Made by a program: the position numbers and the translations under genes. 64,000 nt of DNA from a bacterium (lineage in GTDB: Bacteria; SZUA-79; Acidulodesulfobacterales; Acidulodesulfobacteraceae). The stretch spans positions 3,096 through 67,095 of the forward strand of contig JAJZVN010000010.1 of NCBI GenBank assembly GCA_021845685.1. Reading direction: 5' to 3'. The notes under the pieces were generated by a model. That model had not been told where the DNA came from. It made no database searches and was given only the letters and a program-made list of their open reading frames with translations. Numbering within the stretch: position 1 is the first letter of the stretch; the number at the start of each line of letters is the position of its first letter. Positions 8,012 through 54,753 of the stretch are shown here, one piece after another.

Positions 8012-8815
8012 ATGATGATGGAGAAACCATTTAATTTAACTTCTAATTTAAAAAAAAGTTTGTTATCAGGAAGTAAATATTTCAGGATAATTATGTTATT
8101 AATGTTTTTATTAGTCCCTATCTTAGCTTTTTCGGGATGCGCGTCAATGAGCGGTACAACTAATTCAACGACTTCTGCGAGCGGTATGAGCGCCGGTAAT
8201 ATGAATTTGCAGACAAAGATGAGTTCATCTATTTTTCTGCAGCCCGTTTCTCCAAGCGAAAAGGTAGTTTATGTAAGAGCTACAAACACCAGTTCCGCAT
8301 CTGGTCTTAGATTTAAAGCAGTTTTGGAGCAAGCTTTAATAACTCGCGGATACAAAATTACAAATGACCCTAAAGAAGCTTATTTTATACTCATGTCAAA
8401 TGTTTTATATCTCGGCAAAGAGACGCGTGCTTATACTGCTGCAGGTGCATTGGCAGGAGGTTTTGGCGGCGCTCTGATAGGTTCAAGATACGGCGACGTA
8501 GGTTCTACATTGGTAGGCGGAGGAATTGGAGCTTTAGCGGGAGGTCTTATCGGAGCTATGTTTCAGCATAAAAAATATATGATGGTTGTTGATATTCAAT
8601 TAGAACAAAGGCAGAAAGGATCATACACAACTAACGGAACAGCAACATCTGAAGGATTAGGAAATACCACTACTACTTATAACGCAGGCGTGAAAAACTG
8701 GGCAATTTACAGAGACAGGGTCGTTGCAACGGCTAGCGCAATCAATCTTAAATTCAGTTCGGCTGAACCTGCATTAAAAACTGTGGTAGGAAGAGAAATT
8801 TCAAATTTATTATAA
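8012..8815 (+). CDS. traT: TraT-like outer-membrane lipoprotein (complement-resistance / surface-exclusion family)
   Basis: 267 aa. Lipobox LAFSGC. LQTKMSSSIFLQP, YMMVVDIQLEQR and the C-terminal INLKFSSAEPALKTVVGREISNLL parallel F-plasmid TraT as I recall it. Central Gly-rich hydrophobic segment. Confidence 0.6.
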   Translation: MMMEKPFNLTSNLKKSLLSGSKYFRIIMLLMFLLVPILAFSGCASMSGTTNSTTSASGMSAGNMNLQTKMSSSIFLQPVSPSEKVVYVRATNTSSASGLRFKAVLEQALITRGYKITNDPKEAYFILMSNVLYLGKETRAYTAAGALAGGFGGALIGSRYGDVGSTLVGGGIGALAGGLIGAMFQHKKYMMVVDIQLEQRQKGSYTTNGTATSEGLGNTTTTYNAGVKNWAIYRDRVVATASAINLKFSSAEPALKTVVGREISNLL

Positions 8816-9133: not shown

Positions 9134-9556
9134 TTACATTATTCTGCCGGCTTTTCCTAATAATGTCATTATATTGTTAAATACAAAAATAAAAATTGCG
9201 GCGAATTCAATAAATGCAAAAATAGAAAAGAATAATAGCGTTATTAAGCTATAGCCTGGATTGTCGCTTGATATTATCCAAATTAATGCCATTCCCAATA
9301 ATCCAATATTTGCCAAATAAAATTGTATGATTATTAATCTATTGCTATAAAGTTTAAAACCGCTGAATCTCGGAAGCACATGATAGCCTACCGAATATAT
9401 CATCATAGCTATAAAACCTAATAGAAGAAAGTGTACATGCGTTAAAAGAAGATAATTCACCGAAGGCGGATAAACTGCCATTATAAAACCTAATAACGCT
9501 CCTAAAACAAAATATAACAAAGACGAAATAGTAAAATAACGCATAGCAGGACTCAT
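9134..9556 (-). CDS. hypothetical 4-TM membrane protein
   Basis: 140-aa hydrophobic ORF with a GGGAG RBS. The THVHFLLLGF...YHVLPRF segment is faintly reminiscent of haem-copper oxidase subunit I helices. Function unknown. Confidence 0.5.
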   Translation of the reverse strand: MSPAMRYFTISSLLYFVLGALLGFIMAVYPPSVNYLLLTHVHFLLLGFIAMMIYSVGYHVLPRFSGFKLYSNRLIIIQFYLANIGLLGMALIWIISSDNPGYSLITLLFFSIFAFIEFAAIFIFVFNNIMTLLGKAGRIM

Positions 9557-9632
9557 AAGCTACTCCCGTAAAATTTTATTTATTTATTTATTTATTTATT
9601 AAAAGTAAAGCTTAGCAACAGAATTATATCCT

Positions 9633-9694
9633 TAAATGAATTATATACAAAAAAAGAATCTACTGAGATATTTGACTTTTTTAAAGATATCATC
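9633..9694 (+). repeat. 62-bp copy of an internal nusB fragment (inverted relative to nusB)
   Basis: taaatgaattatatacaaaaaaagaatctactgagatatttgacttttttaaagatatcatc equals the reverse complement of 12139-12200 with one mismatch. Confidence 0.85.
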
Positions 9695-9794
9695 GTAAAA
9701 TTTTAAATTGTTTATGTAATAATATAATTATAAATAATTAAGATTTAATAAAAAATGATAAAAATCACACATTGTATTAGGTATTAGCAACGCA

Positions 9795-10697: not shown

Positions 10698-11420
10698 TTA
10701 ATAAGAGTTAATAATATTTTGCTGTATTTCGGTTAATTGTAAAACAGCCTTTTTAGCAATATCGCCAAATTTATTTATAAGTTCAAAATCTATCGGAGTT
10801 TTTTCGGCGCATCCTTGAATTTCAATTAATTTTCCGCTGCCTGTCATTATAAAATTAAAATCAAGTTCGGCGTTAGAATCTTCCGAGTAATCAAGATCAA
10901 GCAAAATTTCATTATTTACAATCCCGATACTGATAGCTGCAACAGAGTCATAAAACGGCATTTTTTCAATTCTGTTTTGTTTCAACAAACTTAGAAAAGC
11001 TAAATGTGCAGCCACATATGCACCGGTGATAGAAGCAGTCCTTGTTCCTCCGTCCGCGCTGATAACATCGCAGTCAATTAACAGGGTGATATCGGGAAAA
11101 TCCGAAAAATTAGCGACAGTTCTTAAAGTTCTTCCAATAAGTCTTTGAATTTCCTGAGCCCTGCCGTTAATCTTTCCTTTTGAAGAATCTCGAGGCATTC
11201 TGGTTTGGGTAGATCGGGGCAGCATAGAATATTCCGCAGTAATCCAGCCCTGCCTTTTATCTTTTAGAAAAGGAGGAACTTTATTTTCAACGCTGGCAGT
11301 GCAGATTACTTTAGTATCGCCGGATTTAATAAGACATGACCCTTCAGCATATTTCATAAAGTCCGGAATTATAGTTACTTCCCTCATTTCATCAAAAGCG
11401 CGATTTTTTTTTCTTAGCAT
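10698..11420 (-). CDS. rph: ribonuclease PH
   Basis: 240 aa with the typical RNase PH N-terminus (R..DEMREV.I...F.K.AEGSCLI..GDTKVICTASVE) and GGTRTASITGA. Confidence 0.9.
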   Translation of the reverse strand: MLRKKNRAFDEMREVTIIPDFMKYAEGSCLIKSGDTKVICTASVENKVPPFLKDKRQGWITAEYSMLPRSTQTRMPRDSSKGKINGRAQEIQRLIGRTLRTVANFSDFPDITLLIDCDVISADGGTRTASITGAYVAAHLAFLSLLKQNRIEKMPFYDSVAAISIGIVNNEILLDLDYSEDSNAELDFNFIMTGSGKLIEIQGCAEKTPIDFELINKFGDIAKKAVLQLTEIQQNIINSY

Positions 11421-11527: not shown

Positions 11528-11776
11528 TTAAGCCGATGCCCATTTTTTATTCTGAATCAAAAACATATAAAGATCATTAAGCTTAATTGTATTCAAAAGT
11601 TTAGTGTTGATTAACGAGCATACCGACGGTATATCGTTAAGCATAGATTCTTTATCAGAGACAACCATAAGCATATCTTCAGGTTTTAATGTTTTAAGTT
11701 TTCCGACGACCGCCAGAACAGGAGGACCTCAGCATAAACCTCTGATATCCAAAGTATTAATAGAGTTGTTATCCAT
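11528..11776 (-). CDS. TusA/SirA-family sulfur-carrier-like protein with in-frame UGA (predicted selenocysteine) at codon 16
   Basis: Manual minus-strand translation: MDNNSINTLDIRGLC-U-GPPVLAVVGKLKTLKPEDMLMVVSDKESMLNDIPSVCSLINTKLLNTIKLNDLYMFLIQNKKWASA. The TGA (11729-11731) aligns with the catalytic Cys of TusA (GLRCPEPV). GGAGGG lies upstream of the ATG, and a SECIS-like hairpin follows the UGA. Confidence 0.65.
11701..11718 (-). promoter_or_regulatory. candidate bacterial SECIS upper stem-loop
   Basis: On the mRNA: UUCUGGC-GGUC-GUCGGAA. This is a 7-bp stem including 2 G.U pairs, with apical loop GGUC, beginning 10-11 nt after the UGA. Loop sequence and spacing match E. coli fdhF SECIS to within 1 nt. 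Confidence 0.5.
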
Positions 11777-11880
11777 TTTATTTAATTACCCTCCGCCCTT
11801 ATTTTTAAATATTTATATTTATATTTTGAATTGCCGTAAATTTATGAATACCTTTAATTACATCAGGTTTTATGTTTAAT

Positions 11881-12351
11881 TTATAAGTTTATATTTTGAA
11901 TTGCCGCATCAAGAATACCGTTTATAAAAAATGGAGACTCTTCATTGCCAAATTTTTTTGCTATTTCAATAGCCTCATTAATGGTGACATTTTTGGGAAT
12001 TTCAGAATGAAAAAGCATTTCAAAAATAGATTGTCTTAAAATATTTCTATCAATTCTTGACATTCTGTCAATAGACCAATTTTTAGATACTTTTTGAATT
12101 AAAAAATCAATTTTTTCAATATTATTCAAAGTTCCTATGATGATATCTTTAAAAAAGTCAAATATCTCAGTAGATTCTTTTTTTGTGTATAATTCATTTA
12201 CGGAATTAATAAAACCGTTATACATCAAGCTTTCCGAGGCGAAATCTTTAAAAAAAGTATTAATTCTAAGATCTATAGAATAATTAATGCCCCCGTCTGC
12301 TTCATATAAAAATTGTACCGCAAGTTCCCTTGCCATTCTTCTTTTTGTCAT
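11881..12351 (-). CDS. nusB: transcription antitermination factor NusB
   Basis: 156 aa. RRMARELAVQFLYE start and the conserved position downstream of ribH. Confidence 0.85.
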   Translation of the reverse strand: MTKRRMARELAVQFLYEADGGINYSIDLRINTFFKDFASESLMYNGFINSVNELYTKKESTEIFDFFKDIIIGTLNNIEKIDFLIQKVSKNWSIDRMSRIDRNILRQSIFEMLFHSEIPKNVTINEAIEIAKKFGNEESPFFINGILDAAIQNINL

Positions 12352-26107: not shown

Positions 26108-29023
26108 ATGAATAAAGTTTTAAAATCAAAAGTATTCATTACAGGTTTTATGGTTATTTTATTATATATAACCTGTTCTTTTGCAATTTATTCTTTTATT
26201 AATCATATAAACAGTAAAGCTAATGCTGATAATAAATTTTACAAAAAAACATTAAATCTTGCCGAAGATTTTTATTCTTTAAATTTCTATTTAAAAAAAT
26301 ATAATACTAATTCCCGCAAAAAATTAAATCCGCATCAGATTGGAAAAATTACATATAAAGTAGGCGACATCAATCAAGATTTTAAATATTTATTTAAAAA
26401 TTTACGGAGACAAGATAAATATTTGCAGGACAAAATACGTCCGATTTTAAATAAAGCATTTGTTGACTGGAAGAAAAAATCACTGCCTGAATTAAATTTA
26501 TTAATTAAACAAAAAAATATTCAAAACAAGTTTACCCCGCGGTTATCATTCATATTTTACAATAATTCAATACTGCTAAGAAAAGCATCGGATATATCAA
26601 TGAAAATAAATATGAATTATGCAAACGATTCTATGCGATTATTAAATTTGCTGCTATTAGTAAATTTTTTAATGGTAATAATTATAAGCCCTTTATTTTT
26701 ATATTATATTATAAAAGTTAAAATTCAAGCCGAAGATAATGAAAAATCAATTAAATCGATATTTGACCAGATGCTTAGCGGTCTTATTTTATTTAGAGAT
26801 AAATTTATATACATAAATCCGGAAGGCGAAAAAATATTAGGGTATTCTTTGTCAGAATTAAAAACAATGAATAATTGGGATATTATGTCTTACGAATATA
26901 AAGAAAGCGCAAAATCAAGATATAGCAAAGCTATAAAAAACGAAGGCGCAAGAGGAGAATTTTTATATAAAATTATTACTAAAAACAATGAAATAAAATG
27001 GGTGATATTTCATACATTGACGATTAATTACAAAGGTCAGCTTACTCGGCTCGGTAATTTTGTAGATTTAACAGAAATGAAAAATGCGGAAGACAAAATA
27101 AAAAATATTACAAGAATGTATTCTACTTTAAGCGATATAAACCAGCTGCTTTTAAGAGTGGAAAATATAGACGACGTGTATGAAAATATCTGTATAATCG
27201 CAGTTGAAAAAGGTCAGTTTAAAATGGCATTTTGCGGTTTTCCAGATGATTATAATAATAAAATGGATATTAAATTTTCGTATGGTTTTGTCGGAGACTA
27301 TTTAGATGACTTTACTATTTCTATTGACGATTCTATACCCGAAGGGCAAGGTCCGGGCGCAATCGCTTTTAGAGAAGACAGAATTGTAATTAACAATGAT
27401 ACCGAAACGAATCCGCTTATGAAACCTTATAGAGATAAAGCTCTTAAAATGGGGTTTTTATCTACGGCGAGTATGCCGATAAAACAGCATAATAAAATAA
27501 TCGGAATATTTAACATATATGCCGGTGAAAAAGATTTTTTCGATAATAAAGAAATTACCCTTTTAGAAGAATTAATGAAAGATATTTCTTTTATGATAAA
27601 TAAAATTGATTTAGAAAAAGAAATTAATTTTATGTCTTTTTATGATCCTTTGACGAAACTGCCTAACAGAAATTTTTTTATAGAAAGCGTGAATAATTAT
27701 TTAGAAAGAGCTAAAGGTCCTGCAGCTATAATTCTTCTGGATTTTTATAAGTTATCTTATATTAACAATACGTTCGGATATGGAACAGGCGACAGTCTGC
27801 TTAATAAGACGGCAGATAACCTTAAAGATTCTTTTACCGTTCAGGATATTATTTCAAGAATCGGCGGCGATGAGTTTGCGGTATTTATTACGGATTTAAA
27901 AGATAAAGATTCGGTAGTCCAGATTATTGATAAAATAAAACATTATTTTAAAAATTCCGTGCATATTGACGGACAAACATTTAATATTTCTTATAATATG
28001 GGAATATCAATTTATCCCGATGACGGAACAACGGCAGATAATCTTTTAAAATCAGCCGATATTGCTCTTTCAAATGCTAAAACTCAGGGCGAAAATGATT
28101 ATGAATTTTTTACTTCGTCAATGAATATAAAAGCCGCTGAATTTTTAATGATGAAAAAACGTCTTGTAGATGCATTTAAAAATAAAGAATTTGTTGTTTA
28201 TTATCAACCTTATTTTAATATAAAAAAATATGATGATTTTAATTTGAAATACCAAAACAATCAAAACGGTAAAAAAGATTCATTGAAATATGAAATAAGA
28301 GGAATGGAAGCTCTTATGAGATGGAACAGTCCTGATCTTGGTTTTGTTCAGCCTGCGAAGTTCATTCCGCTATTGGAAGAAATGGGCTTAATAAGACAGC
28401 TTGAAGAATTTTTAATAGATGCCGTATGTTTTAATTTAAAAGATTGGAAAAATAATAATTTAAAATTAGTTCCAGTTTCTATAAACATTTCTCCCGTGAG
28501 TTTTGATTATGAAGTCAAATGGTATTGCAATCCAGAGTTAGTTACTTCCCCTGCATATGTTTACGAAAATAAAAGTTTAAGTTTGGTTGATATGATTTTT
28601 CAGACTATTGATAGATACAGCCTTGATTATTCTTTGATAAATATTGAAGTAACGGAAGGCTTATTTATTCATCATTTTGATTGCGCTTTAAAAATATTAA
28701 ACAGATTTAAAGAAAAAGGTATGAAAATTGCTATTGACGATTTTGGAACGGGGTATTCATCGCTGTCGTATATAAAAAATATTCCTGCAGATATTATTAA
28801 GATAGATATTTCATTTATAAAAAATATGATGGAAAACCCAAAAGTTTTTGCAATCATCAATACTATTGTGGAGCTTTCCGCAAGATTAGGAATAGAGACT
28901 ATAAGCGAAGGCGTAGAGACCGTAGAACAACTAGAAAAATTAGAATCTTTAGGAGCGGACATGGTGCAAGGATATCTTTTCTCTAAGCCTATCCATGAAA
29001 CAGAAATACGAAAAATGCTTTAA
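26108..29023 (+). CDS. membrane-anchored PAS-GAF-GGDEF-EAL signalling protein (c-di-GMP turnover)
   Basis: 971 aa with two TM segments around a ~150-aa N-terminal domain. RIGGDEF and EALMRW motifs are intact. DDFGTGYSS and QGYLFSKP are present. Confidence 0.85.
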   Translation: MNKVLKSKVFITGFMVILLYITCSFAIYSFINHINSKANADNKFYKKTLNLAEDFYSLNFYLKKYNTNSRKKLNPHQIGKITYKVGDINQDFKYLFKNLRRQDKYLQDKIRPILNKAFVDWKKKSLPELNLLIKQKNIQNKFTPRLSFIFYNNSILLRKASDISMKINMNYANDSMRLLNLLLLVNFLMVIIISPLFLYYIIKVKIQAEDNEKSIKSIFDQMLSGLILFRDKFIYINPEGEKILGYSLSELKTMNNWDIMSYEYKESAKSRYSKAIKNEGARGEFLYKIITKNNEIKWVIFHTLTINYKGQLTRLGNFVDLTEMKNAEDKIKNITRMYSTLSDINQLLLRVENIDDVYENICIIAVEKGQFKMAFCGFPDDYNNKMDIKFSYGFVGDYLDDFTISIDDSIPEGQGPGAIAFREDRIVINNDTETNPLMKPYRDKALKMGFLSTASMPIKQHNKIIGIFNIYAGEKDFFDNKEITLLEELMKDISFMINKIDLEKEINFMSFYDPLTKLPNRNFFIESVNNYLERAKGPAAIILLDFYKLSYINNTFGYGTGDSLLNKTADNLKDSFTVQDIISRIGGDEFAVFITDLKDKDSVVQIIDKIKHYFKNSVHIDGQTFNISYNMGISIYPDDGTTADNLLKSADIALSNAKTQGENDYEFFTSSMNIKAAEFLMMKKRLVDAFKNKEFVVYYQPYFNIKKYDDFNLKYQNNQNGKKDSLKYEIRGMEALMRWNSPDLGFVQPAKFIPLLEEMGLIRQLEEFLIDAVCFNLKDWKNNNLKLVPVSINISPVSFDYEVKWYCNPELVTSPAYVYENKSLSLVDMIFQTIDRYSLDYSLINIEVTEGLFIHHFDCALKILNRFKEKGMKIAIDDFGTGYSSLSYIKNIPADIIKIDISFIKNMMENPKVFAIINTIVELSARLGIETISEGVETVEQLEKLESLGADMVQGYLFSKPIHETEIRKML

Positions 29024-29168
29024 ACATAACTATATAAAATTCCCCAGATGGATGGGGAAAATTAAATTGCAAAAAACAATGCTTATATTCCCCGCAGATT
29101 CAAGCGACAGTATGGGAATAAATAAATCGGATATTATAAACTTAATGAATCTATTGACTTTAATCCTG

Positions 29169-29329
29169 CGATAGAAAATGTTTTAGATAGTTTAATACTA
29201 AGCAATACTGGATTCCCGCTTGCGCGGGAATGACACCCAAAGGGTGAATGTTTAAATCCTCGCTAAGTCATTCCTGCGTAAGCAGGAATCCAGAAAATAA
29301 ATTTCTATCGCAGGATTAGGGATTGACAT
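29169..29329. mobile_element. MITE family 1, copy b (variant TIRs)
   Basis: TIRs tttaatcctgcgatagaaa / tttctatcgcaggattagg. The core ctggattcccgcttgcgcgggaatgacacc...gtcattcctgcgtaagcaggaatccag is the same as in copies a and c. Confidence 0.7.
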
Positions 29330-29692
29330 CATTCTTGACATTTTTAAAATAATGGTTTAAAATTAAATATAATTTATTTTATATCTTATTTATATCTATA
29401 TAAATAATATCTCAATATCTCAATTTTATATCTCGTTAATTATTAATTATATTATTATTGCCGGAAATTTCTTATATATAAGATAAGTAATAAAAGGCGA
29501 TGGTTTATAGCAGGAGTATAGCAGGCATTTTTATCCTGCTCATCCTTATTCAATTCACCTTTTTTATTTTCATTAGCAATATTTAGCAATATGAAATGAA
29601 TTAAATTTTTCTATTTTTCAACTTATCTAAACTATTTAATTAACTTAATTAACATTAATTTATTTTGAATTTATTTTGATGGAATATTATAT

Positions 29693-31117
29693 ATGAAAAA
29701 ATTTAATAAAGTATTAATAGCTAACAGGGGAGAAATAGCTTCCCGCATTATAAGAGCATGTAAAGAATTAGGTATTAAGACAGTCGCTATTTATTCCGAA
29801 GCAGATTCCCAGGCTTTGCATGTTAAAAAAGCGGATGAAGCGTATCTTGTCGGACCAGGCCCTATTTCAGGATATTTAAATGTTAATAGAATAGTAGATC
29901 TTGCTGTTAATATAGGAGTTGACGCTATACATCCCGGATACGGTTTTTTATCGGAAAATGCTAAATTTCCCGCATATTGCGAAAAAAGAGGTATTGTTTT
30001 TATAGGTCCATCAGCCAAATCTATTTCAATGATGGGCGATAAGATAGAATCAAAAAAACTTATGCGTAAAGCAGGTGTTCCCGTTGTAGAAGGTTCGGAA
30101 GGCGGAGTTATATCTGAAGAAGACGCATTGAGCATTGCACGATTCATAGGTTATCCTGTAATGATAAAAGCTTCTGCAGGCGGCGGCGGCAAAGGGATAA
30201 GGATTTGTTTTAACGACGAGGACATTAAAAAAAATTTTTCGCTGTCTAGATCCGAAGCAGAAAAATCTTTCGGAAATCCTGAAGTTTTTATTGAAAAATA
30301 TATAGACAAGCCTCATCATATAGAATTTCAAATTCTTGCAGATAATTACGGCAATATAATACATCTTGGCGAAAGAGATTGTTCTATTCAAAGAAAACAT
30401 CAAAAATTAATCGAGATTGCTCCGTCTCTTATATTAACCGAAGAATTAAGAAAAAGAATGGGCGAATCCGCTATTGCCGCAGCTAAAGCCTGTGATTATA
30501 GAAATGCAGGAACAATAGAATATATTATGGATAAAAACGGCAACTATTATTTTATGGAAATGAACACGAGAATTCAAGTTGAACATCCTGTTACCGAAAT
30601 GGTTACGGGAGTAGATATAGTCGGCGAACAAATTCAAATTGCAATGGGTAAAGAATTAGATATTAAACAGGAAGATGTAGTGTTAAGAGGCTATGCTATA
30701 GAATGCAGGATTAATGCCGAAAATCCAAGAAAAGATTTTGCTCCCAGTACGGGAAAAATCACTGCGTATTATTCTCCCGGAGGTATCGGCGTAAGGATAG
30801 ACGGGTCGGTATATAAAGACTATGTATTACCGCCTTTTTACGATTCAATGATTGCTAAAATGACTGTATATGGAAGAACATGGGATGAAACGGTAAGAAG
30901 AGCTTCAAGGGCATTGCAGGAATTTGTAATAAAAGGCATACGAACTACTATACCGTTTCAATTAAAAATAATAGAAGACGAAGATTTTATAAAAGGAAAC
31001 TTTGACACTCATTTTATTGAAGAAAGGCAGTACCTGAGAGATTATAAAATACAGAGAGATCCCTCTGACAGAATTATTGCTATCTCAGCCGCTATTGCGG
31101 CATATTATGGAATATAA
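29693..31117 (+). CDS. pycA: biotin carboxylase subunit (pyruvate carboxylase subunit A type)
   Basis: 474 aa. ATP-grasp biotin carboxylase motifs (IANRGEIA, GGGGKGIR, EMNTRIQVEHPVTE). Followed by the carboxyltransferase/BCCP subunit. Confidence 0.85.
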   Translation: MKKFNKVLIANRGEIASRIIRACKELGIKTVAIYSEADSQALHVKKADEAYLVGPGPISGYLNVNRIVDLAVNIGVDAIHPGYGFLSENAKFPAYCEKRGIVFIGPSAKSISMMGDKIESKKLMRKAGVPVVEGSEGGVISEEDALSIARFIGYPVMIKASAGGGGKGIRICFNDEDIKKNFSLSRSEAEKSFGNPEVFIEKYIDKPHHIEFQILADNYGNIIHLGERDCSIQRKHQKLIEIAPSLILTEELRKRMGESAIAAAKACDYRNAGTIEYIMDKNGNYYFMEMNTRIQVEHPVTEMVTGVDIVGEQIQIAMGKELDIKQEDVVLRGYAIECRINAENPRKDFAPSTGKITAYYSPGGIGVRIDGSVYKDYVLPPFYDSMIAKMTVYGRTWDETVRRASRALQEFVIKGIRTTIPFQLKIIEDEDFIKGNFDTHFIEERQYLRDYKIQRDPSDRIIAISAAIAAYYGI

Positions 31118-44556: not shown

Positions 44557-45876
44557 ATGGAAAAAGTAAAGATAAAAATATTGCGTATAGCATTTTTTTT
44601 GATGATTCTGATATCAGTATCTATGATATCTATGATTTTTTCAATGCCAAAAGGTTTTTCAGCCGAGCTAATTAAGAAAAAACCTCATTTTGATGCGGTC
44701 GTATTGCCGTTAAAATTTCTTATTAAAAAAGCTTTAAAAAATCCGGAAATAAAATCAAGCATATATCAATACTTGGGATATAAAGAAAATATAACAATAG
44801 TAAAGAGCCTTCCCGAGCCTGCGGTAGGATTCGGAATGACTGATGCTAACGGGTTTAATAATCCGCAGATAGGCATTAATTCAATGAGCTACTGGAAATT
44901 TAGCGCATCGCAGGCAATACCGTTTCCCACTAAATTATTTATAAATAGCAAAATCAAGAAATCCATATATAAATCATTGAAAGATAAAACTATTTCTTTA
45001 AAACTTTTTACTATTTTAAATATCAAAGATGTTTATTACAATCTTGCTTTATTAGAAAAAGATATAAAAACTTTTAAAGAAAACCTTACGCTTATTAATC
45101 TGCTGTTAAAATATGCCGACAGAAATTATGCAAGCGGCAGATCAAACGCAAGAGGTCCTATGAGAATCATTTTAGAGATTGATCAAATAAAAACTAAGTT
45201 AATCTTATTTAAAAAACAAAAAAATAAATTTGTATATATATTGTCAAAATTTACGGAGCTTCCGATAAAATATTTTAAAAATAAAAAAGCTGAATTTATG
45301 GGAAAAGTTATGCCTTTAAAATATCAATTTAATAATCTTATGAAAACAGCGGATAAATTAAATCCTGATTTAAAAGAAGGAAAAGAAAATATTAAAACTT
45401 CCCTGCTCGGCATAGACCTGGCAAATCAAGGATATTATCCAAATTTTTCTGTATTTTTAGGCTATGGAGACAGATATTCGCTTCAACCTGTTATATCAGG
45501 CGGCGTATCAATTACTTTGCCTTTATATTTTAATGAAAGTCAGATTCCAAAAATAAACAAGGCAAAAAAATATAATATTAATACTATTTATAAATATGCA
45601 TGGATACGATTAAAAACCGTTCAAGATTTAAAGACTGCCGTAAGCAATATAAAAAATGATTATAAAGTTTACGTCATCAATAAAAATATAACCGAACCCG
45701 AAGCAAAACTCTTATTCAATTCGTATACCAAAAGTCTTATGTCGGGCAAGGCACAGACATTTCCTTTGTTGAACAGTTTTGTCCAATTGCTTTTGATAAG
45801 ACTTAAAACTTATGCATACAAAGCCGAATATTTTAAGGATGATGCTTTTTTAGAGGCGGTTATAGGAAAAAATTAA
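44557..45876 (+). CDS. cusC: outer-membrane efflux protein (TolC/CusC family)
   Basis: 439 aa with a signal peptide. First gene of a three-gene RND heavy-metal efflux cluster. Confidence 0.7.
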   Translation: MEKVKIKILRIAFFLMILISVSMISMIFSMPKGFSAELIKKKPHFDAVVLPLKFLIKKALKNPEIKSSIYQYLGYKENITIVKSLPEPAVGFGMTDANGFNNPQIGINSMSYWKFSASQAIPFPTKLFINSKIKKSIYKSLKDKTISLKLFTILNIKDVYYNLALLEKDIKTFKENLTLINLLLKYADRNYASGRSNARGPMRIILEIDQIKTKLILFKKQKNKFVYILSKFTELPIKYFKNKKAEFMGKVMPLKYQFNNLMKTADKLNPDLKEGKENIKTSLLGIDLANQGYYPNFSVFLGYGDRYSLQPVISGGVSITLPLYFNESQIPKINKAKKYNINTIYKYAWIRLKTVQDLKTAVSNIKNDYKVYVINKNITEPEAKLLFNSYTKSLMSGKAQTFPLLNSFVQLLLIRLKTYAYKAEYFKDDAFLEAVIGKN

Positions 45877-46047
45877 CGGTTTAATTTTTTATTAATATTT
45901 AATTAATTTGAATTTAATCGTTTTGTATATAATTGCATATAAAAAAATTATTAATTTATATAAATTAATAATTATAGTTAAACAATTAAACAATTAAACA
46001 GTAGATATAAATTTTATAAAAATAATAATAAAGACAGAGGATATATT

Positions 46048-47223
46048 ATGAAAAAAATGATTTATATAGCAGGTCTGATTATAACTCTTATAATAGGTAT
46101 TGCGGCATCGGCAGTTTATTTTCAATTTTTTAATTATAAATATAAAAGCAATAATAATAAGCCGCCTAAAAAAATGCCGAAAAAAATGGTAATGCCTTTA
46201 AAAAAAGGAATTTTTGTAAGTTCAAGACAAAGGCAGCTTTACGGGATAACCGTAGGCACGGTTAAATACATAAAAATAAGCCCTGTCATAAGATCAATCG
46301 GCGAATTGAAGATAGCAGAACCGCTTATTAAAAAAATATCATTAAGATATAGCGGATATATAACAAAGCTGTATGCAAACAAAACCGGAATGAAAATATA
46401 TGTCGGCGATAAATTGTTTAGGATTTACAGCCCGTCTATTTTTAACGCAGAAAAAAATCTTTTTTTAGCTTATAAAAATTATAAAAATGCTAAGAAATCA
46501 AATTATAAATTTAGTATTGCGGAAAGCAAAAGTTATTACAGAGCTGCCGAAAAAAGGCTTAAGCTATACGGAGGTATATCAAAAAAGCAGATAAAAGAAA
46601 TAAAAGACGGTATTTATACAAAATCCGATATTGTTATTTATTCAAATTTGTCAGGCATTTTATTAAAAAAATATGTATATTCCGGGCAGCATTTTACTAA
46701 AGGGCAGACATTATTTAAATTAGCGGGGTTAAATACATTATGGATGAATATATCTATTTATGGAAGCGATTTAAAATTTGTCAATAAAGACAGCAATGTA
46801 TCAGTTGAATTTTCAGCTTACCCCGGAAAAATTTTTAACGGAAAAGTATCATTTATATATCCGTATTTAAAATCTCACGCAAGGGTTACGGAAGCAAGAA
46901 TTGTTTTTAATAATAGACAAGGACTATTGCATCCTGGTATGTTTGGAAACGCTGAATTAATAATGAAACCGATGCATAAATTGTCGATAAAATCATCTTC
47001 GGTTTTATGGACAGGGACTGAGCCGGTTGTTTTTATATATAACGGCAAAGGTTATTTTGCGTCGAAAAAAGTTGTTCTGGGCAAAAGATGGGGCAATTAT
47101 TATCCTGTAATAAGCGGTTTAAAAGCAGGAGAAAGAATTGTAACCTCCGGTACTTTTTTGATTTCATCCGATGCAAACTTGAAACAGTCGGTTAATTCAA
47201 TGGCAGGTATGCCTGGTATGTAA
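46048..47223 (+). CDS. cusB: RND efflux periplasmic adaptor (CusB-like)
   Basis: 391 aa. N-terminal Met cluster KKMPKKMVMP, with membrane-fusion beta-barrel and lipoyl-like regions. Confidence 0.8.
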   Translation: MKKMIYIAGLIITLIIGIAASAVYFQFFNYKYKSNNNKPPKKMPKKMVMPLKKGIFVSSRQRQLYGITVGTVKYIKISPVIRSIGELKIAEPLIKKISLRYSGYITKLYANKTGMKIYVGDKLFRIYSPSIFNAEKNLFLAYKNYKNAKKSNYKFSIAESKSYYRAAEKRLKLYGGISKKQIKEIKDGIYTKSDIVIYSNLSGILLKKYVYSGQHFTKGQTLFKLAGLNTLWMNISIYGSDLKFVNKDSNVSVEFSAYPGKIFNGKVSFIYPYLKSHARVTEARIVFNNRQGLLHPGMFGNAELIMKPMHKLSIKSSSVLWTGTEPVVFIYNGKGYFASKKVVLGKRWGNYYPVISGLKAGERIVTSGTFLISSDANLKQSVNSMAGMPGM

Positions 47224-47258
47224 TATAAATAAATATTAAATTTTGAGGTTTATATATA

Positions 47259-50200
47259 ATGATTAAAAAATTAATAGATTATTGCATAGAAAATCAATTT
47301 ATAGTACTTATTTTTATGCTATTTTTAGGATTTTTCGGTACGATTGCCGTTAAAAATATAAGATTAAATGCCCTTCCTGATATTGCGCCTACGGAAGTTA
47401 TTATAAAAACAGATTGGTCAGGCGAACCGCCGAATCTTATAAATTTAAGAGTAACCTATCCTATAGAATCTTATCTTCTGTCTGCTCCTAAAGTTAAAGA
47501 GGTCAGAGGAACTTCTATGTACGGTTCATCGTTTGTGACTGTAGTGTTTAACAGAGGAACAAGCATTTCATGGGCAAGAGCCCAGATTTTAGCTTATATG
47601 AATCAGATTAAAACATTACTACCCCCGGGAGTAATCCCTGTATTAGGTCCTTATGCCAATGCTATGGGTTGGGTTTATATGTACGGGATAATTGACAAAG
47701 ATCATAACGAAAATTTAGAACAGCTAAGAACTATCCAACAGTATTATTTAAGGTATGCTTTAGAATCTGTTCCCGGTGTTGCTCAGGTTGCGACTTACGG
47801 CGGTTTTCAAAAAGAATATCAGGTTACGTTAAATCCGAGGGCGATTCAATATTATAATATGTCAATCGGTCAGATTAACAACTCTTTAAAATCATCGAAT
47901 AACGATATAGGAGCAAGAGTTATAGATTCTTCTTCGGGCGCTGAACATCTTGTGTTTGTAAAAGGCTATCTGCATACATTAAAAGAAATAAGAAATATAG
48001 TAGTCGGACAGACCGCAAATCATGTACCTATTCTTGTAAAAAATATAGGCTCTGTAGAAAAAGTACCCGCCTCTCAGAGGTCTTATTCCGATTTGAACGG
48101 CAACGGACAGATAGTAGGCGGCGTTGTTATTATGCAGCAGGGAGCCAATACTTTAAATGTAATTAATGCCGTTAAAAAGAAAATTAAATCTTTAGAGACT
48201 TCTCTTCCTAAAGGAGTTAAAATTATCACGACTTACGATGAATCTTCTTTAATCCACAGGTCTATAAATACACTTAAAACCACGCTTTTAGAGATAATAA
48301 TTATAGTTATGCTTGTCTGTATTATTTTCCTGTTTCATTTCAGGTCTGCATTAGTAGTGATAATCATGATGCCGTTTGCAATATTGGGAGCCTTTTTGGC
48401 AATGTACTTATTACATATAAGCGCAAATATCATGTCTTTATCAGGTATTGCTCTTGCTGTCGGCGCAATGGTTGATTCCAGTATAGTTATGATTGAAAAT
48501 GCCCATTCTTATATAGAAAGACTTGAGCATAGTCCCGATTCTGTTCCTGAACATATAAAAGCAATTAAAGACAAAAAGAAAGCAAAAAAAGTTTATATTG
48601 CAGAATCGGCAAAAGAAATGGGCAAACCATTGTTTTTTTCTTTAATAATTATAGCCGCAGGATTTTTGCCTATTTTTTATTTATCCGGGGAAGTCGGGGC
48701 TTTATTTAAGCCTTTAGCTTACACAAAAACCTTCTCGATGCTTTTTGCCGCTTTAATATCCGTTACTTTAGTGCCGATACTTATGGTTCATTTAATAAAA
48801 GGTAAAATAAAACCGATAGACGAAAATCCTGTTAATAGATTTTTGGCTTATATTTACAAGCCCGTTTTAAAATTTGTTATGCTTTATAAATATATATTTA
48901 TAGGTTTAATTTTAATTTTAATGGTTGCAACTTATTTTGTTTATACAAGAATAGGTTCGCAATTTATGCCGCCGTTAAATGAAGGGACTTTACTGTATAT
49001 GCCTTCCGCATTACCCGGTTATTCGGGAACAGACGCTCTAAAATTAATACAAATTGAAGACAGGATAATCAAAAGTTTTTCGGAAGTCAAAATGGTTACG
49101 GCAAAAGCAGGCAGAGCCGATACGGCTTTAGATCCTGCAGGACTTTCGATGACGGAGACCGTTATTAATTTGACAAGACGCTCAACCTGGCCGGAAGGAA
49201 TGACTGTAACAAAATTAATAAGTAAATTAAACAAAGCGTTAAATATCCCGGGACTTGTCAATGTATGGACAATGCCGATCAAAAACAGAATAGAAATGAC
49301 GTCTGCCGGGCTGCGCACTCCCATAGGCATAAAAGTTTACGGTTCAAATGTAAATATATTGCAGAATATTTCGGCAAAAATAGCTTCCGCTCTTTATATG
49401 GTAAAAGGAACGCAGAGCGCCTTTGCAAATAGGATTAACGACAGACCTTACATTGAAATAAGTCCTGATTATATTAAAATGGGGTTTTACGGCATAACGC
49501 TAAAAGAAATTGACGATGCGGTGGATGCGTCGATTGGAGGAAAAACTATTACTACTTTATATAACGGATTGGCTCGATATCCTTTGTCTGTAAGATATCC
49601 TTATACATACAGAAATTCATTATCGGCAATTCGAAATATTTTAGTTAAAACTAAAAACGGTCCGTATGTGCCTTTAAAAGAAACGGCCCACGTAAAATAT
49701 ATTATCGGACCGGATTATGTTTCTTCGCAGGGCGGTATCCCCGATGATATTATAGATATAACATTAAAGACTAAAAATATGGTAGGGTGGGTCAAAACCG
49801 CAAAAAAAATGATATCAAAAATGGTGCCTCTGCCTGTGGGCTACCATATTGTTTTCTCAGGAGAATACAAATCGCTTCAGAGTGCAAATAAAAAATTATT
49901 GTTAATCATTCCTCTTACTATACTGATTATATTTTTGCTTATATATTTAAACTTTAAATCAATCCCGTTGTCGCTGATAGTTATGCTGTCCGTGCCTTTT
50001 GCGCTGATAGGAGGATTTTTTTATATTTATCTGCTACATATAACTTTAAGCATTGCGGTATGGGTGGGTTTTATTGCGCTTATCGGCGTTTCAACTGAGA
50101 TAGGAATGGTCATGATTACCGTTTTGGACAGTCTGTTTAAAGAAAGAGAAATAGCGGCGGTAACGGTATTAGAAGATTTAGAAAGTTCCGGAATTTCAGA

Positions 50201-50603
50201 TGTAAGCATGGTGCATAAAAAAATAAATGACGCTTTTCCTCCGGACGATAAAATACAGAACACACAGAACATAGAGGTCATGCGAGATACGCAAAACACG
50301 CAGGATACGCAGAAAAAACATGAGGGAAATTATAAAAAATTAAGTAAACAAGATATAGAAGATATTAGCGCTACCGGAGCTACAAAAAGGCTAAGACCTG
50401 TTGTCATGACATCATTTGCGATAATTTTCGGTCTTTTACCCGCAATGTTTGCTTACGGAGCAGGCGCAAGAACTACAAAATTTATAGCTGCTCCGATGAT
50501 AGGAGGAATGATTACCGCAACTATACTAAATTTATTGATGCTGCCTGCTATTTATTCTATGTGGAAACAATATGAAATTAAGAAAAAAGAAAAAAACAAA
50601 TAA
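47259..50603 (+). CDS. cusA: heavy-metal efflux RND pump, CusA type
   Basis: 1114 aa. The three Met residues of the E. coli CusA Cu(I) site appear conserved (LLYMPSALPG, LSMTETVINL, RIEMTSAGLRTPIGIKV). About 70 aa of low-complexity insertion lies near residue 960. Confidence 0.9.
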   Translation: MIKKLIDYCIENQFIVLIFMLFLGFFGTIAVKNIRLNALPDIAPTEVIIKTDWSGEPPNLINLRVTYPIESYLLSAPKVKEVRGTSMYGSSFVTVVFNRGTSISWARAQILAYMNQIKTLLPPGVIPVLGPYANAMGWVYMYGIIDKDHNENLEQLRTIQQYYLRYALESVPGVAQVATYGGFQKEYQVTLNPRAIQYYNMSIGQINNSLKSSNNDIGARVIDSSSGAEHLVFVKGYLHTLKEIRNIVVGQTANHVPILVKNIGSVEKVPASQRSYSDLNGNGQIVGGVVIMQQGANTLNVINAVKKKIKSLETSLPKGVKIITTYDESSLIHRSINTLKTTLLEIIIIVMLVCIIFLFHFRSALVVIIMMPFAILGAFLAMYLLHISANIMSLSGIALAVGAMVDSSIVMIENAHSYIERLEHSPDSVPEHIKAIKDKKKAKKVYIAESAKEMGKPLFFSLIIIAAGFLPIFYLSGEVGALFKPLAYTKTFSMLFAALISVTLVPILMVHLIKGKIKPIDENPVNRFLAYIYKPVLKFVMLYKYIFIGLILILMVATYFVYTRIGSQFMPPLNEGTLLYMPSALPGYSGTDALKLIQIEDRIIKSFSEVKMVTAKAGRADTALDPAGLSMTETVINLTRRSTWPEGMTVTKLISKLNKALNIPGLVNVWTMPIKNRIEMTSAGLRTPIGIKVYGSNVNILQNISAKIASALYMVKGTQSAFANRINDRPYIEISPDYIKMGFYGITLKEIDDAVDASIGGKTITTLYNGLARYPLSVRYPYTYRNSLSAIRNILVKTKNGPYVPLKETAHVKYIIGPDYVSSQGGIPDDIIDITLKTKNMVGWVKTAKKMISKMVPLPVGYHIVFSGEYKSLQSANKKLLLIIPLTILIIFLLIYLNFKSIPLSLIVMLSVPFALIGGFFYIYLLHITLSIAVWVGFIALIGVSTEIGMVMITVLDSLFKEREIAAVTVLEDLESSGISDVSMVHKKINDAFPPDDKIQNTQNIEVMRDTQNTQDTQKKHEGNYKKLSKQDIEDISATGATKRLRPVVMTSFAIIFGLLPAMFAYGAGARTTKFIAAPMIGGMITATILNLLMLPAIYSMWKQYEIKKKEKNK

Positions 50604-51948: not shown

Positions 51949-52018
51949 AATATGCCGTTTGCTTTTATTTTTTAATTATTTAAAGTCTATTTAATTATTA
52001 TAATTGGAGGTATGAATT

Positions 52019-52357: not shown

Positions 52358-52620
52358 CGGATATAAAATATAGGTATTGTTTTTTGCATGATTTTTAATA
52401 AATAAATATTTAGAGTCAATGCAGGATTTATATTGATTTTAAAATTAATTTATTAATTAAACAAAAGACCATGATAGAAATTTATTTTATTTTAAAATTT
52501 CCGAATTTAAAAATAAACTTATTAATTAAAAAGTAGTTATCAAAGGAGGCGTTTAAGTTTAGATTTATAGATTTTTATATATTTAATTTTTATAGATTTA
52601 AACTGACGGCATCAACTATT

Positions 52621-54615: not shown

Positions 54616-54753
54616 ATGTTTATTTAAATGATAAAGAACATTTAATTAATAATTAAAACAATTAAAAAAAATTTTTAAAATAAATGAAATTAGTGAATGT
54701 TACACAGATTACTAAATCATCATACAACGAACTAAGGAGTGTTAATTTATAAT

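Follow-up and report, generated by a model that had tools for sequence, protein, structure and literature searches.

Between nusB and rph, on the minus strand of the 64-kb stretch of bacterial DNA analysed here (the window), a short reading frame resembling a sulfur-carrier gene is interrupted by an in-frame TGA at the position of the catalytic cysteine. The locus raises the question of whether this codon ends a broken or mis-assembled gene, or whether it is decoded, and if so as which amino acid. The window proteins cluster at 90% identity or above with those of the species represented by the published MAGs of the order, and the lineage is Ca. Acididesulfobacter (Acidulodesulfobacterales). 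The comparisons described below lead us to consider it probable (about 0.88) that the locus is a real, expressed selenoprotein gene, in which UGA 11731-11729 is read as selenocysteine (Sec) by means of SelB and a hairpin in the message, giving an 82-residue protein with the TusA fold. The features on which the argument draws are collected in the Table.

Table. Features of the nusB-rph region of the window
Feature	Position	Strand	Basis or remark
nusB, conserved upstream neighbour	11881..12351	-	ORF list; PF01029 NusB at the same position in L001-L004 and L134-L138
Direct-repeat copy of the nusB 3' end (11875-11906), 84% identical	11805..11836	.	In the spacer between nusB and the gene
GGAGGG, putative Shine-Dalgarno-like motif	11789..11794	-	12 nt 5' of the ATG
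CDS of the putative Sec-containing TusA-family protein	11528..11776	-	82 codons plus TAA stop; ATG 11776-11774
TGC codon, Cys15, predicted to form a Cys-Sec dyad with codon 16	11732..11734	-	Aligned to Arg18 of E. coli TusA
In-frame TGA, predicted selenocysteine codon (codon 16)	11729..11731	-	Position of E. coli TusA Cys19
bSECIS-like hairpin UUCUGGC-GGUC-GUCGGAA	11701..11718	-	Geometry and covariation
Hairpin 5' arm (UUCUGGC)	11718-11712	-	
Hairpin loop (GGUC)	11711-11708	-	
Hairpin 3' arm (GUCGGAA)	11707-11701	-	
TGC codon, Cys53, second conserved cysteine	11618..11620	-	Aligned to E. coli TusA Cys56
rph (RNase PH), conserved downstream neighbour	10698..11420	-	ORF list; RNase_PH Pfam domains in syntenic loci

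Read on the minus strand, positions 11528-11776 translate as MDNNSINTLDIRGLC, the TGA, GPPVLAVVGKLKTLKPEDMLMVVSDKESMLNDIPSVCSLINTKLLNTIKLNDLYMFLIQNKKWASA and a terminal TAA (11530-11528). This is identical to the 82-codon translation given in the original prediction, which had likewise started the gene at ATG 11776 and noted the GGAGGG upstream of it; in the homologues, a purine-rich AGG(A/T)G lies at a comparable distance 5' of the start. Translation of the window gene would begin at ATG 11776. The prediction had also held that the ORF list contains nothing at the locus except a 91-aa antisense shadow ORF. That ORF is indeed listed (11604..11879, +), but it is accompanied by a 48-aa C-terminal fragment of the gene itself (11528..11674, -), and these two are the only entries at the locus. 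Public annotations either shorten the gene to fragments of 46-51 aa or read the TGA as Trp.

With Sec entered as Cys, the full-length product scores 37.9 bits with PF01206, for which the cutoff is 28.6; the match places residues 8-75 on profile positions 2-69/70 and spans the TGA. A profile of the family matches 1DCJ (E. coli TusA) over its entire domain (E = 3.6e-13), and the alignment to 1DCJ/3LVJ runs without gaps and sets the TGA opposite catalytic Cys19. The AF2 model (pLDDT 87.2) has the beta-alpha-beta-alpha-beta-beta topology of the TusA/SirA two-layer alpha/beta sandwich, with secondary structure elements E7-10, H18-28, E35-40, H45-55, E59-66 and E69-75, and its best Foldseek match in the PDB is E. 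coli TusA (3LVJ_C, E = 5.9e-6, TM 0.80/0.85), followed by YeeD and the SirA-like 3HZ7. Judged by profile match and modelled fold, the predicted protein is a member of the TusA family (PF01206), and both the TusA/SirA assignment and the Cys-Sec dyad with its second residue on Cys19, as originally proposed, hold up in these alignments. Where the family has its nucleophile, at the N-terminal end of helix alpha-1, this gene has the UGA codon and ~118 relatives have Cys; in the product, Sec16 would be the nucleophile in the place of E. coli Cys19, with Cys15 directly before it.

Membership of the family does not extend to its characterized branches. The score against the TusA equivalog NF001423 (tRNA 2-thiouridine pathway) is 45.3 bits, under the cutoff of 78, and the protein is therefore not a TusA orthologue. 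The scores against the YedF equivalogs also lie far below their cutoffs (NF008242, 25.9 bits against 79; TIGR03527, 14.3 against 110), and TIGR03527 describes a two-domain SirA-like plus DsrE-like architecture, whereas the protein here is a single domain of 82 residues. The link to YedF that had been drawn for this gene is correspondingly weak. The Cys-Pro-X-Pro motif, a feature of SirA-like domains (PMC5322559), is absent, being replaced by U-G-P-P here and by CC[SA]xP in the Cys homologues, with only the Pro at +3 retained.

The TGA is invariant in all 14 distinct homologues, each time within LDIRGLC-TGA-GPP, on contigs that range from 29 to 57% GC and lie in at least three gene neighbourhoods. 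Among ~120 full-length relatives, ~118 have Cys-Cys at the dyad site, and the sole exceptions, two 'CW' entries, are table-4 translations of TGA genes. Cys15 is invariant in all members, whether of the TGA type or the Cys type, and Cys53 is almost invariant across the family; a Cys codon at the UGA position is found in no member of the clade marked by GPP and NKKW. According to these alignments, the gene is part of an apparently Sec-only subclade (C-U-G-P-P, NKKW). The TusA subfamily to which this subclade belongs is widespread, and its other members invariably have a Cys-Cys dyad. The original prediction had named the orthologues as a check, and the 14 distinct sequences keep the TGA without decay, with Cys-containing homologues at the same position. 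No frameshift or additional stop occurs in any of the 14 copies. Over the eight codons 5' of the UGA, pN/pS is 0.15-0.30, and downstream, in the same frame, it is 0.2-0.5 (0.3-0.5 for codons +1 to +20), at a silent divergence that has reached saturation (pS 0.5-1.2). By this measure, the codons before and after the UGA are both under purifying selection, in a single frame.

Two database entries were set aside. P0014/L142 had the appearance of a further TGA member but is of the Cys type, its start having been called wrongly ('CCAMPV'), and P0001 (82 aa, Trp at position 16), which might be taken as evidence of Trp decoding, is a table-4 translation from a 615-bp contig. A metagenome scan with the degenerate DNA pattern GGNYTNTGYTGAGGNCCNCC gave chance matches, with no new family member among the matches listed. 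The exhaustive protein search used a profile built from the database fragments, which covers 53 C-terminal positions.

The position of the gene between nusB and rph, pointed out in the original prediction, is conserved: the order is kept in both genera of Acidulodesulfobacterales (locus L134 clusters with Ca. Acidulodesulfobacterium), and the protein-cluster members of the neighbours are named NusB and ribonuclease PH. With regard to the presumed co-transcription with nusB and rph, a scan found no terminator, and promoter-like sites at chance level only. Nothing in the neighbourhood (riboflavin genes, nusB, rph) hints at sulfur or selenium, and tus and dsr genes are absent from it.

Elsewhere in the window, TGA behaves as an ordinary stop. 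As had been claimed, TGA 248-250 ends a gene with a transaldolase-like C-terminus, after which a transketolase starts at ATG 275; none of the 42 long ORFs of the window ends in TGA, and no internal TGA is present in the other ~55 window genes. With a TGA that stops the transaldolase-like gene and none that breaks another gene of the window, a general reassignment of UGA, already considered unlikely in the original prediction, is rejected for these 64 kb. No selA, selB, selD or tRNA-Sec gene was found in the window or the family loci, and no second selenoprotein gene, which would give independent proof of Sec decoding, was found in the window and 11 related loci. K01008 (selD), K01042 (selA), K03833 (selB) and K00123 are listed as present in all four MAGs AP1-AP4 in a KO table that describes related MAGs of the order and not the genome of the window (PMC6776010 Table S3).

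The message can form a hairpin directly after the UGA, with a stem that begins 10 nt and a loop that lies 17 nt past it. Both its sequence and its spacing agree with the original prediction (10-11 nt after the UGA), as does the claim that its GGUC loop sits within 1 nt of the fdhF position, which is +18. The loop is at +17 in all 14 members and the stem comprises 7 bp in the window and 4-7 bp across members; L010 has only four clean base pairs, and in L143 the loop is GAUC. Bacterial SECIS (bSECIS) elements are described as having an apical loop of 3-9 nt with G within its first two positions, an upper stem of 4-16 bp, a UGA-to-loop distance of 16-37 nt, and a minimum free energy no higher than -7.5 kcal/mol (PMC13188914, Fig. 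2 legend). The window hairpin has this geometry (4-nt GGUC loop, 7-bp stem, 17-nt spacing) and agrees with three of the four published criteria, its energy being -7.0 kcal/mol with flanking bases and -6.2 kcal/mol bare. The 48-nt context has a minimum of -9.4 kcal/mol, but in a different fold, and in contexts of 42-52 nt the fold z-score is about -0.6, with a minimum-energy structure that differs from the hairpin; the caution that the stem is weak was thus well placed. In the wider family, the hairpins of L137 (-11.9), L140 (-10.1), L143 (-9.4) and L139 (-8.1) lie beyond the energy threshold and those of L010 (-4.7) and L134 (-5.6) fall short of it. As a measure of chance, bSECIS geometry with a stem of 7 bp or more is found after 0.8-1.2% of the 1,948 TGA trinucleotides in the window, and at 3 of the 1,948 (0.15%), the present site among them, the loop of such a hairpin is a 4-nt G[G/U] loop. 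The Infernal-type check suggested for the hairpin returned no SECIS model: a permissive Rfam scan gave no SECIS family at E <= 10 and only chance snoRNA matches. bSECIS elements are considered too diverse for a single model (PMC13188914).

In the alignment, 94.9% of cells are paired, and in three pairs both partners have changed. The hairpin has a covariation score of 0.396, compared with 0.160 +/- 0.032 for shuffles (none of 500 reaches it) and no more than 0.166 in slid controls. Pair 36-51 is U-A in the window and C-G in L143 (GTT...GGA to GTC...GGG), a change by two synonymous substitutions, and since no amino acid is altered this is not protein coevolution. Across the loop and the top of the stem, codons +5 to +8 (CTG-GCG-GTC-GTC) have a third-position entropy of 0, compared with 0.8-1.8 bits in the flanking codons, and the four-fold sites of GCG, GTC and GTC are invariant over 29-57% GC, while adjacent four-fold sites use all four bases. 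The Cys-type genes have no such hairpin 3' of the dyad. From the aligned members, RNA-level selection can be shown to act on the hairpin that was originally proposed, and covariation resides there and not in the minimum-energy alternative. SelB with Sec-tRNA(Sec) would be drawn to the hairpin and insert selenocysteine at the UGA.

A real selenoprotein could nevertheless have its signal elsewhere, the hairpin reflecting constraint on the protein (the Ala-Val-Val codons and i/i+4 contacts). One such signal might be fold B, which pairs the UGA region with GGCGGUC and is the minimum-energy structure of several members; moreover, two of the covarying pairs, 37-50 and 38-49, involve codons 21 and 25, whose residues (i and i+4) share a face of helix alpha-1, so protein-level coupling could contribute to them. 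Fold B, however, shows no covariation (0.008), its outer pair is broken in 7 of the 14 members, and its pairs consist of first and second positions of the invariant Gly-Pro-Pro codons; for these reasons it was rejected. Protein constraint also leaves unexplained both the frozen four-fold sites beside freely varying neighbours and the doubly synonymous change in pair 36-51, and we consider this reading very improbable. Decoding of the UGA as something other than Sec, whether a suppressor or near-cognate tRNA puts in Trp, Cys, Gly or Arg during hairpin-stimulated read-through or the lineage partly reassigns UGA, would fit the lack of Sec machinery in the window, the rarity of TGA as a stop and the Trp that two public pipelines assigned (P0001, P0022). 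These Trp residues are table-4 calls on contigs of ~1 kb or less, however, and TGA does stop the transaldolase-like gene without interrupting any other. The Cys aligned with the UGA in the relatives is a signature of Sec, the hairpin has SelB-type geometry with the GGUC loop of fdhF, and selA, selB and selD are reported in the lineage (PMC6776010). Taken together, these observations make non-Sec decoding unlikely.

Were the locus instead a pseudogene or a split gene, translation would end at the TGA with residue 15, and the most that could be made of the remainder is a 48-aa C-terminal fragment starting at Met37. Every database copy is called as a 46-51-aa fragment, and the hairpin is thermodynamically marginal, both of which are compatible with such decay. 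On the other hand, the TGA and the frame have been kept in 14 distinct sequences at saturating silent divergence, with selection evident upstream. Codons +1 to +20, which a pseudogene would leave untranslated because they precede Met37, are constrained as well and encode helix alpha-1 of the TusA fold; no copy has acquired a frameshift or further stop, and the 48-aa fragment would be devoid of strand beta-1, helix alpha-1 and the active site. A pseudogene is accordingly very hard to reconcile with the data. Harder still to sustain is a sequencing or assembly error in a TGC or TGT codon of an ordinary Cys-Cys TusA gene. Metagenome assemblies are the source of all the sequences, and Cys is indeed the residue at this site in the wider subfamily, but the same TGA is present in independent ENA, JGI, NCBI and Logan assemblies from lineages of very different GC content, the GPP/NKKW clade contains no Cys codon there, and an error would leave the co-occurring conserved hairpin unexplained; we regard it as scarcely credible. 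Selenocysteine insertion is the reading that we retain.

The function proposed for this selenoprotein is drawn entirely from family membership. E. coli TusA is a sulfur carrier that takes a persulfide from IscS on Cys19, and TusA is a central hub from which sulfur passes to the thiolation of tRNA, to molybdenum cofactor synthesis and to dissimilatory sulfur oxidation. By analogy, the protein may carry sulfane sulfur or act as a redox relay, with a Cys15-Sec16 selenenylsulfide as its resting state and an Se-S(H) adduct as its sulfur-loaded form, and serve Dsr-type metabolism, a proposal to which we give roughly even odds. It would then take part in the Dsr-type sulfur metabolism of these acid-mine-drainage bacteria, in which Sec would be both a better nucleophile and a better leaving group than Cys. 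A dedicated chalcogen relay is doubtful, although it would be of interest as the first Sec-dependent step in the TusA-centred trafficking network. Such a relay might deliver selenium to SelD or to tRNA 2-selenouridine synthesis, which would fit the role of TusA as sulfur donor for the 2-thiouridine precursor and the fixed place of the gene among RNA-processing genes, or might use a selenenylsulfide to pass sulfane sulfur to DsrEFH/DsrC, the lineage carrying both reductive and oxidative dsr genes.

The gene appears to represent a genuine and apparently undescribed selenoprotein family. No TusA/PF01206 entry appears among the 119 prokaryotic selenoprotein families catalogued in May 2026 (PMC13188914), and we found no earlier description of a Sec-containing TusA in the literature. 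If confirmed, it would add a selenoprotein family together with a natural Sec/Cys pair for probing the importance of the nucleophile in sulfur trafficking, and every public copy of the gene would be mis-annotated, being either cut to 46-51 aa or given a Trp in place of the UGA-encoded residue. It also draws attention to the wider, unstudied Cys-Cys-dyad TusA subfamily. The understanding of Sec decoding itself is unchanged, as the gene follows the classical Sec/Cys-plus-SECIS pattern and such families are regularly reported.

Among known recoding elements, the hairpin compares most directly with the E. coli fdhF SECIS. Both have a GGUC apical loop, 18 nt from the UGA in fdhF and 17 nt here, on an element directly downstream of the UGA and inside the CDS; the fdhF sequence with GGTC at +18 has perfect (100% identity) matches within the fdhF genes of over 5,400 E. 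coli genomes. The hairpin here is shorter and less stable, with an uninterrupted 7-bp stem and no conserved lower stem, whereas the fdhF SECIS contains a bulged U.

As a selenoprotein, the gene has parallels of two kinds. Sec-containing proteins of sulfur trafficking are already known in rhodanese-like forms 1-5, a DsrE-like protein and the YeeE/YedE family (PMC13188914, Table 1). In these small proteins of sulfur relay or transport, Sec similarly takes the place of a Cys that carries sulfur or has a redox role, and they were similarly predicted from a Sec/Cys pair and a bSECIS, but they have other folds and belong to other Pfam families (PF00581, PF02635 and PF04143). An adjacent Cys-Sec pair is typical of the 'CU' selenoproteins, namely SaoL (MerB-like), HgcA, SaoC, MbdU, KCU-star and the Csac_0668 family (PMC13188914; bioRxiv 10.1101/2022.07.06.499078), whose database genes are also typically truncated at the CU site. 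Their folds are unrelated, and they are linked to metal or organometal chemistry, to which nothing in the present data directly ties the TusA-CU protein.

The closest relatives are the members of the Cys-Cys-dyad TusA subfamily (DI[KR]G[LM]CC[SA]xP ... FWI[RK]K), which are 33-45% identical and have the dyad at the identical position. Its 726 database matches are annotated only as 'sulfurtransferase TusA family protein', and we found no functional study of the subfamily in the literature. They differ in having Cys instead of Sec, no hairpin after the dyad, and other gene contexts. On gammaproteobacterial contigs, a small soluble protein is followed by the Cys-Cys TusA and then MerR; on a Nitrospirota contig, the order is thioredoxin, a YgaP-like/DUF2892 membrane protein, the Cys-Cys TusA and FmdE. 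The idea that Cys-type genes are always paired with a DUF2892/YgaP-like protein was rejected, as a Pfam scan found it in the Nitrospirota example only and the gammaproteobacterial partner differs, and the TGA-type loci contain none of these partner genes.

E. coli TusA (YhhP; 1DCJ, 3LVJ) is a further point of reference. The two proteins are only ~27% identical, with predicted Sec here for Cys19, Cys for Arg18 and U-G-P-P for C-P-E-P, and the context here is nusB-rph, away from tus or dsr genes. They nevertheless share fold and length, align without gaps, keep Cys56 (here Cys53) and the D-I-P motif, and place the nucleophile at the same position before helix alpha-1.

Translation of the minus strand from the proposed ATG of the predicted Sec-TusA gene gives MDNNSINTLDIRGLC, an internal stop, GPPVLAVVGKLKTLKPEDMLMVVSDKESMLNDIPSVCSLINTKLLNTIKLNDLYMFLIQNKKWASA and a terminal stop, the internal stop being the TGA at codon 16; the frame of the original prediction is thus reproduced, as is the GGAGGG motif that it placed upstream of the start. 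That prediction had the locus represented by a 91-aa antisense shadow ORF only, and the shadow ORF is indeed listed, but so is a 48-aa C-terminal piece of the gene, these two being the sole entries. Written with Cys in place of Sec, the protein scores 37.9 bits on the Pfam TusA family (PF01206; gathering score 28.6) over residues 8 to 75 and so across the TGA, confirming the TusA/SirA membership claimed for it. Its scores of 45 against the NCBIfam TusA equivalog (cutoff 78) and 26 against the YedF equivalog (cutoff 79) are far under both cutoffs, and it is therefore a member of the family but an orthologue of neither. Alignment with E. coli TusA (1DCJ, 3LVJ; phmmer, PDB sequences) is gapless, matching codon 16 to Cys19, Cys15 to Arg18 and Cys53 to Cys56, and a family profile spanning the whole domain (E = 3.6e-13) returns the identical register, so that the predicted position of the TGA on the catalytic Cys19 stands. 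The AlphaFold2 model (57 family sequences, Trp in place of Sec, mean pLDDT 87.2) has beta-alpha-beta-alpha-beta-beta topology with residues 15-16 directly preceding helix alpha-1, and its top Foldseek hit is E. coli TusA (TM 0.80/0.85, rmsd 2.1 Å), followed by YeeD/TsuB and a SirA-like protein.

Coordinates of the predicted Sec-TusA gene and of other features (window positions, except where a homologous locus or contig, L, is named)
Feature	Position	Strand	Remarks
Transaldolase-like gene, TGA stop	248-250		gene runs off left window edge
Transketolase, start	275		
TraT-like lipoprotein gene	8012-8815		PF05818, 175 bits
140-aa membrane ORF	9134-9556	minus	PF00115, 40.8 bits, profile positions 309-400 only
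113-nt inverted repeat	9623-9735; 12098-12210		80% complementary; first arm between COX1-like ORF and nth, second inside nusB
Sec-TusA gene	11776-11528	minus	82 codons
In-frame TGA	11731-11729	minus	codon 16
Hairpin UUCUGGC-GGUC-GUCGGAA	11718-11701	minus	loop starts 17 nt past UGA
GGAGGG motif		minus	12 nt 5' of Sec-TusA ATG
32-nt direct repeat	11805-11836; 11875-11906		84% identical
Hairpin AUUCCUGC-GUAA-GCAGGAAU	29245 onward	plus	8 bp, -11.5 kcal/mol; intergenic 29023-29693
Metal/metalloid resistance cluster	44557-50603; 51541-55391		
CC-TusA modules	L144 5759-6701; L152 3157-4127; L148 5417-6929		
Entry P0022 (JGI)	L143 465-713		TGA-type, mis-annotated
Entry P0014	L142 2495-2686		Cys-type

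The hits of an initial database search were a single full-length entry (P0001, with Trp at position 16, from a 615-bp contig translated with table 4) and six fragments of 46-51 aa, all of which begin past the TGA position. Homologue DNA was taken from behind the fragments, from five species-representative genomes and from further fragments of an exhaustive profile search, yielding 14 distinct genes with an in-frame TGA (TGA-type) on contigs of 29-57% GC. All public copies of this family (P0001 in ENA, P0022, and P0002-P0012) are mis-annotated, either as C-terminal fragments of 46-71 aa or with Trp at the UGA, the Trp apparently stemming from the use of table 4 on short contigs. Entry P0014 was rejected as a truncated TGA-type member, as its upstream frame reads CCAMPV..., identifying a Cys-type gene with a start that is mis-called or an N-terminus that is disrupted.

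Decay at the TGA, whether through a pseudogene, a split gene or a sequencing error, is ruled out by these genes: LDIRGLC-TGA-GPP is in frame in 14/14, with no frameshifts or other stops, at silent divergences near saturation (pS 0.5-1.2 between TGA-type groups). The pN/pS ratio is 0.15-0.30 over the eight codons 5' of the TGA and ~0.3-0.5 over the twenty codons from the TGA to the first internal Met, which would be untranslated if the TGA were a stop, yet are under constraint. A general reassignment of TGA was also considered. In the window (30% GC), the 42 ORFs of at least 150 aa end in TAA (35) or TAG (7) and none in TGA; the transaldolase-like gene does stop at TGA, as originally noted, and an internal TGA with coding sequence on both sides occurs in no further gene of the window or of 11 related loci. 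UGA thus serves as an ordinary, if rare, stop, recoded only in Sec-TusA. A Pfam survey of ~55 window genes contained no selA, selB or selD, and the only tRNA in the window is tRNA-His. On sequence identity, the window is assigned to Ca. Acididesulfobacter: proteins of Ca. A. diazotrophicus and Ca. A. guangdongensis fall in the same 90%-identity clusters as RNase PH, NusB and RNase HII of the window. The L134 group of homologous contigs clusters with Ca. Acidulodesulfobacterium ferriphilum. In KEGG, K01008, K01042 and K03833 stand for selD, selA and selB, respectively. All three, together with K00123 (formate dehydrogenase major subunit), are listed for each of the four MAGs AP1-AP4 in the paper describing the order (Tan et al. 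2019, PMC6776010, Table S3), and this KO listing from related MAGs gives good, if indirect, support to Sec decoding in the lineage.

The hairpin predicted to follow the UGA was located, and the description of its stem as weak is borne out by an energy of -6.2 to -7.0 kcal/mol and by the surrounding 42-52 nt, which prefer other structure (fold z-score ~-0.6). The window has 1,948 TGA trinucleotides, of which 0.8-1.2% precede a hairpin of 7 bp or more in the position of a bacterial Sec insertion element (bSECIS), and in three cases (0.15%), that of Sec-TusA included, the loop is a 4-nt G[G/U] one. Judged on this one sequence, the hairpin is thermodynamically unremarkable and geometrically uncommon. 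All 14 TGA-type genes carry a hairpin whose 4-nt loop begins exactly 17 nt after the UGA (loop GGUC in 13, GAUC in one), with stems of 4-7 bp and energies of -4.7 to -11.9 kcal/mol for the hairpin alone. The stem arms, UUCUGGC/GUCGGAA in the window, are UUUGGGC/GUCCAAA, UUCGGGC/GCCCGAA, UCCUGGC/GUCAGGA, UCCUGGC/GUCGGGA and AGGGC/GCCCU in other lineages; 94.9% of alignment cells are paired, with both sides changed in 3 of 7 pairs (14 cells). Covariation is 0.396; column shuffles give 0.160 ± 0.032 (0/500 reach 0.396), and structures displaced by 1-3 columns do not exceed 0.166. The alternative minimum-energy fold, in which GGCGGUC pairs with the UGA and the Gly-Pro-Pro codons, was rejected, having zero covariation and an outer pair that is broken in 7/14 sequences. 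Across TGA-type genes, codons +5 to +8 (CTG GCG GTC GTC) are invariant at their silent positions, while four-fold sites of the adjoining Gly and Pro codons take all four bases and later codons have 0.8-1.8 bits of entropy; furthermore, pair 36-51 changes from U-A in the window to C-G in L143 by two synonymous substitutions (GTT to GTC and GGA to GGG). The invariant silent sites and this synonymous swap argue that the hairpin is constrained as RNA, not through the protein. No comparable hairpin was found in the Cys-type genes examined. In loop, stem, loop G and spacing the hairpin agrees with the bSECIS model of PMC13188914; in energy, the hairpin of the window falls just short of the -7.5 kcal/mol that the model asks for as a maximum, and several relatives reach this value. 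The SECIS-model search suggested with the original prediction gave no match, an Rfam scan of the hairpin region returning chance snoRNA matches only.

The standard signature of a selenoprotein is a UGA at the place where relatives have a conserved Cys in catalytic position. A profile search of 5.8 billion proteins returned 726 relatives, and the best 120 of these comprise ~118 full-length proteins with an invariant Cys-Cys dyad, DI[KR]G[LM]CC[SA]xP, at the same position, plus two 'CW' entries that are TGA genes under table 4; both the TGA-type and the Cys-type homologues that had been sought exist. The TGA-type genes form a separate clade (motifs C-U-G-P-P and NKKW) without a Cys-containing member, at 33-45% identity to the Cys-Cys proteins. 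Conserved TGA, Sec/Cys pair and covarying hairpin together support the candidate selenoprotein, and we put the probability of a genuine gene for a TusA-family protein with predicted Sec at about 0.88.

In the window, Pfam places nusB, Sec-TusA, rph and nth after ribD, ribE, ribBA and ribH; other genes include transketolase, a DoxD-like protein, a two-component system, tRNA synthetases, pyruvate carboxylase, an RND efflux system, arsR-arsD-arsA and ExbBD-TonB. The predicted placement of the gene between nusB and rph is conserved in both genera of Acidulodesulfobacterales, and higher-GC TGA-type members lie elsewhere, after pgk (L006) or near PilZ and cytochrome c genes (L140). A scan of the nusB/Sec-TusA/rph spacers detected no terminator, and promoter-like sites at chance level only. 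Two nusB-derived repeats flank the nth-rph-Sec-TusA-nusB block, the direct one being a copy of the 3' end of nusB, with its stop codon, in the spacer 5' of Sec-TusA; they may be scars of past rearrangement or insertion. The 140-aa ORF matching heme-copper oxidase subunit I (PF00115) is kept downstream of nth in L001-L004, and this syntenic conservation makes it look like a stand-alone COX1-fragment-like protein. The TraT-like lipoprotein gene, of a type usually plasmid-borne and acting in complement resistance or surface exclusion, also keeps its chromosomal position in L001-L004. The resistance cluster (outer-membrane factor, HlyD/CusB-like adaptor and 1,114-aa AcrB-family pump, then arsR-like, arsD, duplicated-domain arsA and low-molecular-weight phosphatase/ArsC-like genes) fits an acid-mine-drainage organism. 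The strong hairpin between the GGDEF/EAL and biotin carboxylase genes has a TGA trinucleotide 30 nt upstream and is probably transcription-related, not a SECIS.

The nusB-rph neighbourhood offers no clue to Sec-TusA function. Modules around the Cys-Cys proteins (CC-TusA) suggest thiol or metal stress responses and vary among themselves: gammaproteobacterial contigs have abutting or overlapping genes for a small soluble 75-89-aa protein, CC-TusA and MerR, and a Nitrospirota contig has thioredoxin, a YgaP-like/DUF2892 membrane protein, CC-TusA and FmdE. Our literature search found nothing on these modules and no paper joining DUF2892 with TusA; the widespread Cys-Cys subfamily appears uncharacterised. 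Function is consequently drawn from family and chemistry, which give about even odds to Sec-TusA being a sulfane-sulfur carrier in which the Cys15-Sec16 pair would cycle between a selenenylsulfide and an Se-S(H) adduct. It may serve the Dsr-type sulfur metabolism of these organisms, for which dsrAB, dsrEFH and dsrL are described (PMC6776010); a selenium-carrier or metal-binding role is possible.

The papers found on selenoproteins and TusA/SirA-like proteins (COG0425) mention SirA-like/YedF only as Cys proteins tied to selenium metabolism. The YedF link drawn originally is weak for Sec-TusA, given its YedF score. The review published by Zhang et al. in May 2026 (PMC13188914) catalogues 119 prokaryotic selenoprotein families or subfamilies with domain identifiers, including rhodanese-like forms 1-5, DsrE-like protein, YeeE/YedE and the 'CU' families SaoL, HgcA, SaoC, MbdU and KCU-star, and has no TusA/PF01206 entry; NCBIfam has no dedicated model. 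The family is therefore probably undescribed, subscription-only literature and database-only annotations being outside the search. It is of note to specialists in selenoproteomes and sulfur trafficking, is directly testable and leaves current understanding unchallenged. As in known selenoproteins, Sec would replace a catalytic Cys and be decoded through a downstream bSECIS, a familiar kind of arrangement. E. coli TusA has Arg18 and Cys19 where Sec-TusA has Cys15 and the TGA codon. The E. coli fdhF SECIS resembles the hairpin in its GGUC loop and the distance of that loop: in the fdhF sequence, confirmed at 100% identity in >5,400 genomes, GGTC starts 18 nt after the TGA, within the predicted 1 nt of the 17 nt in Sec-TusA.
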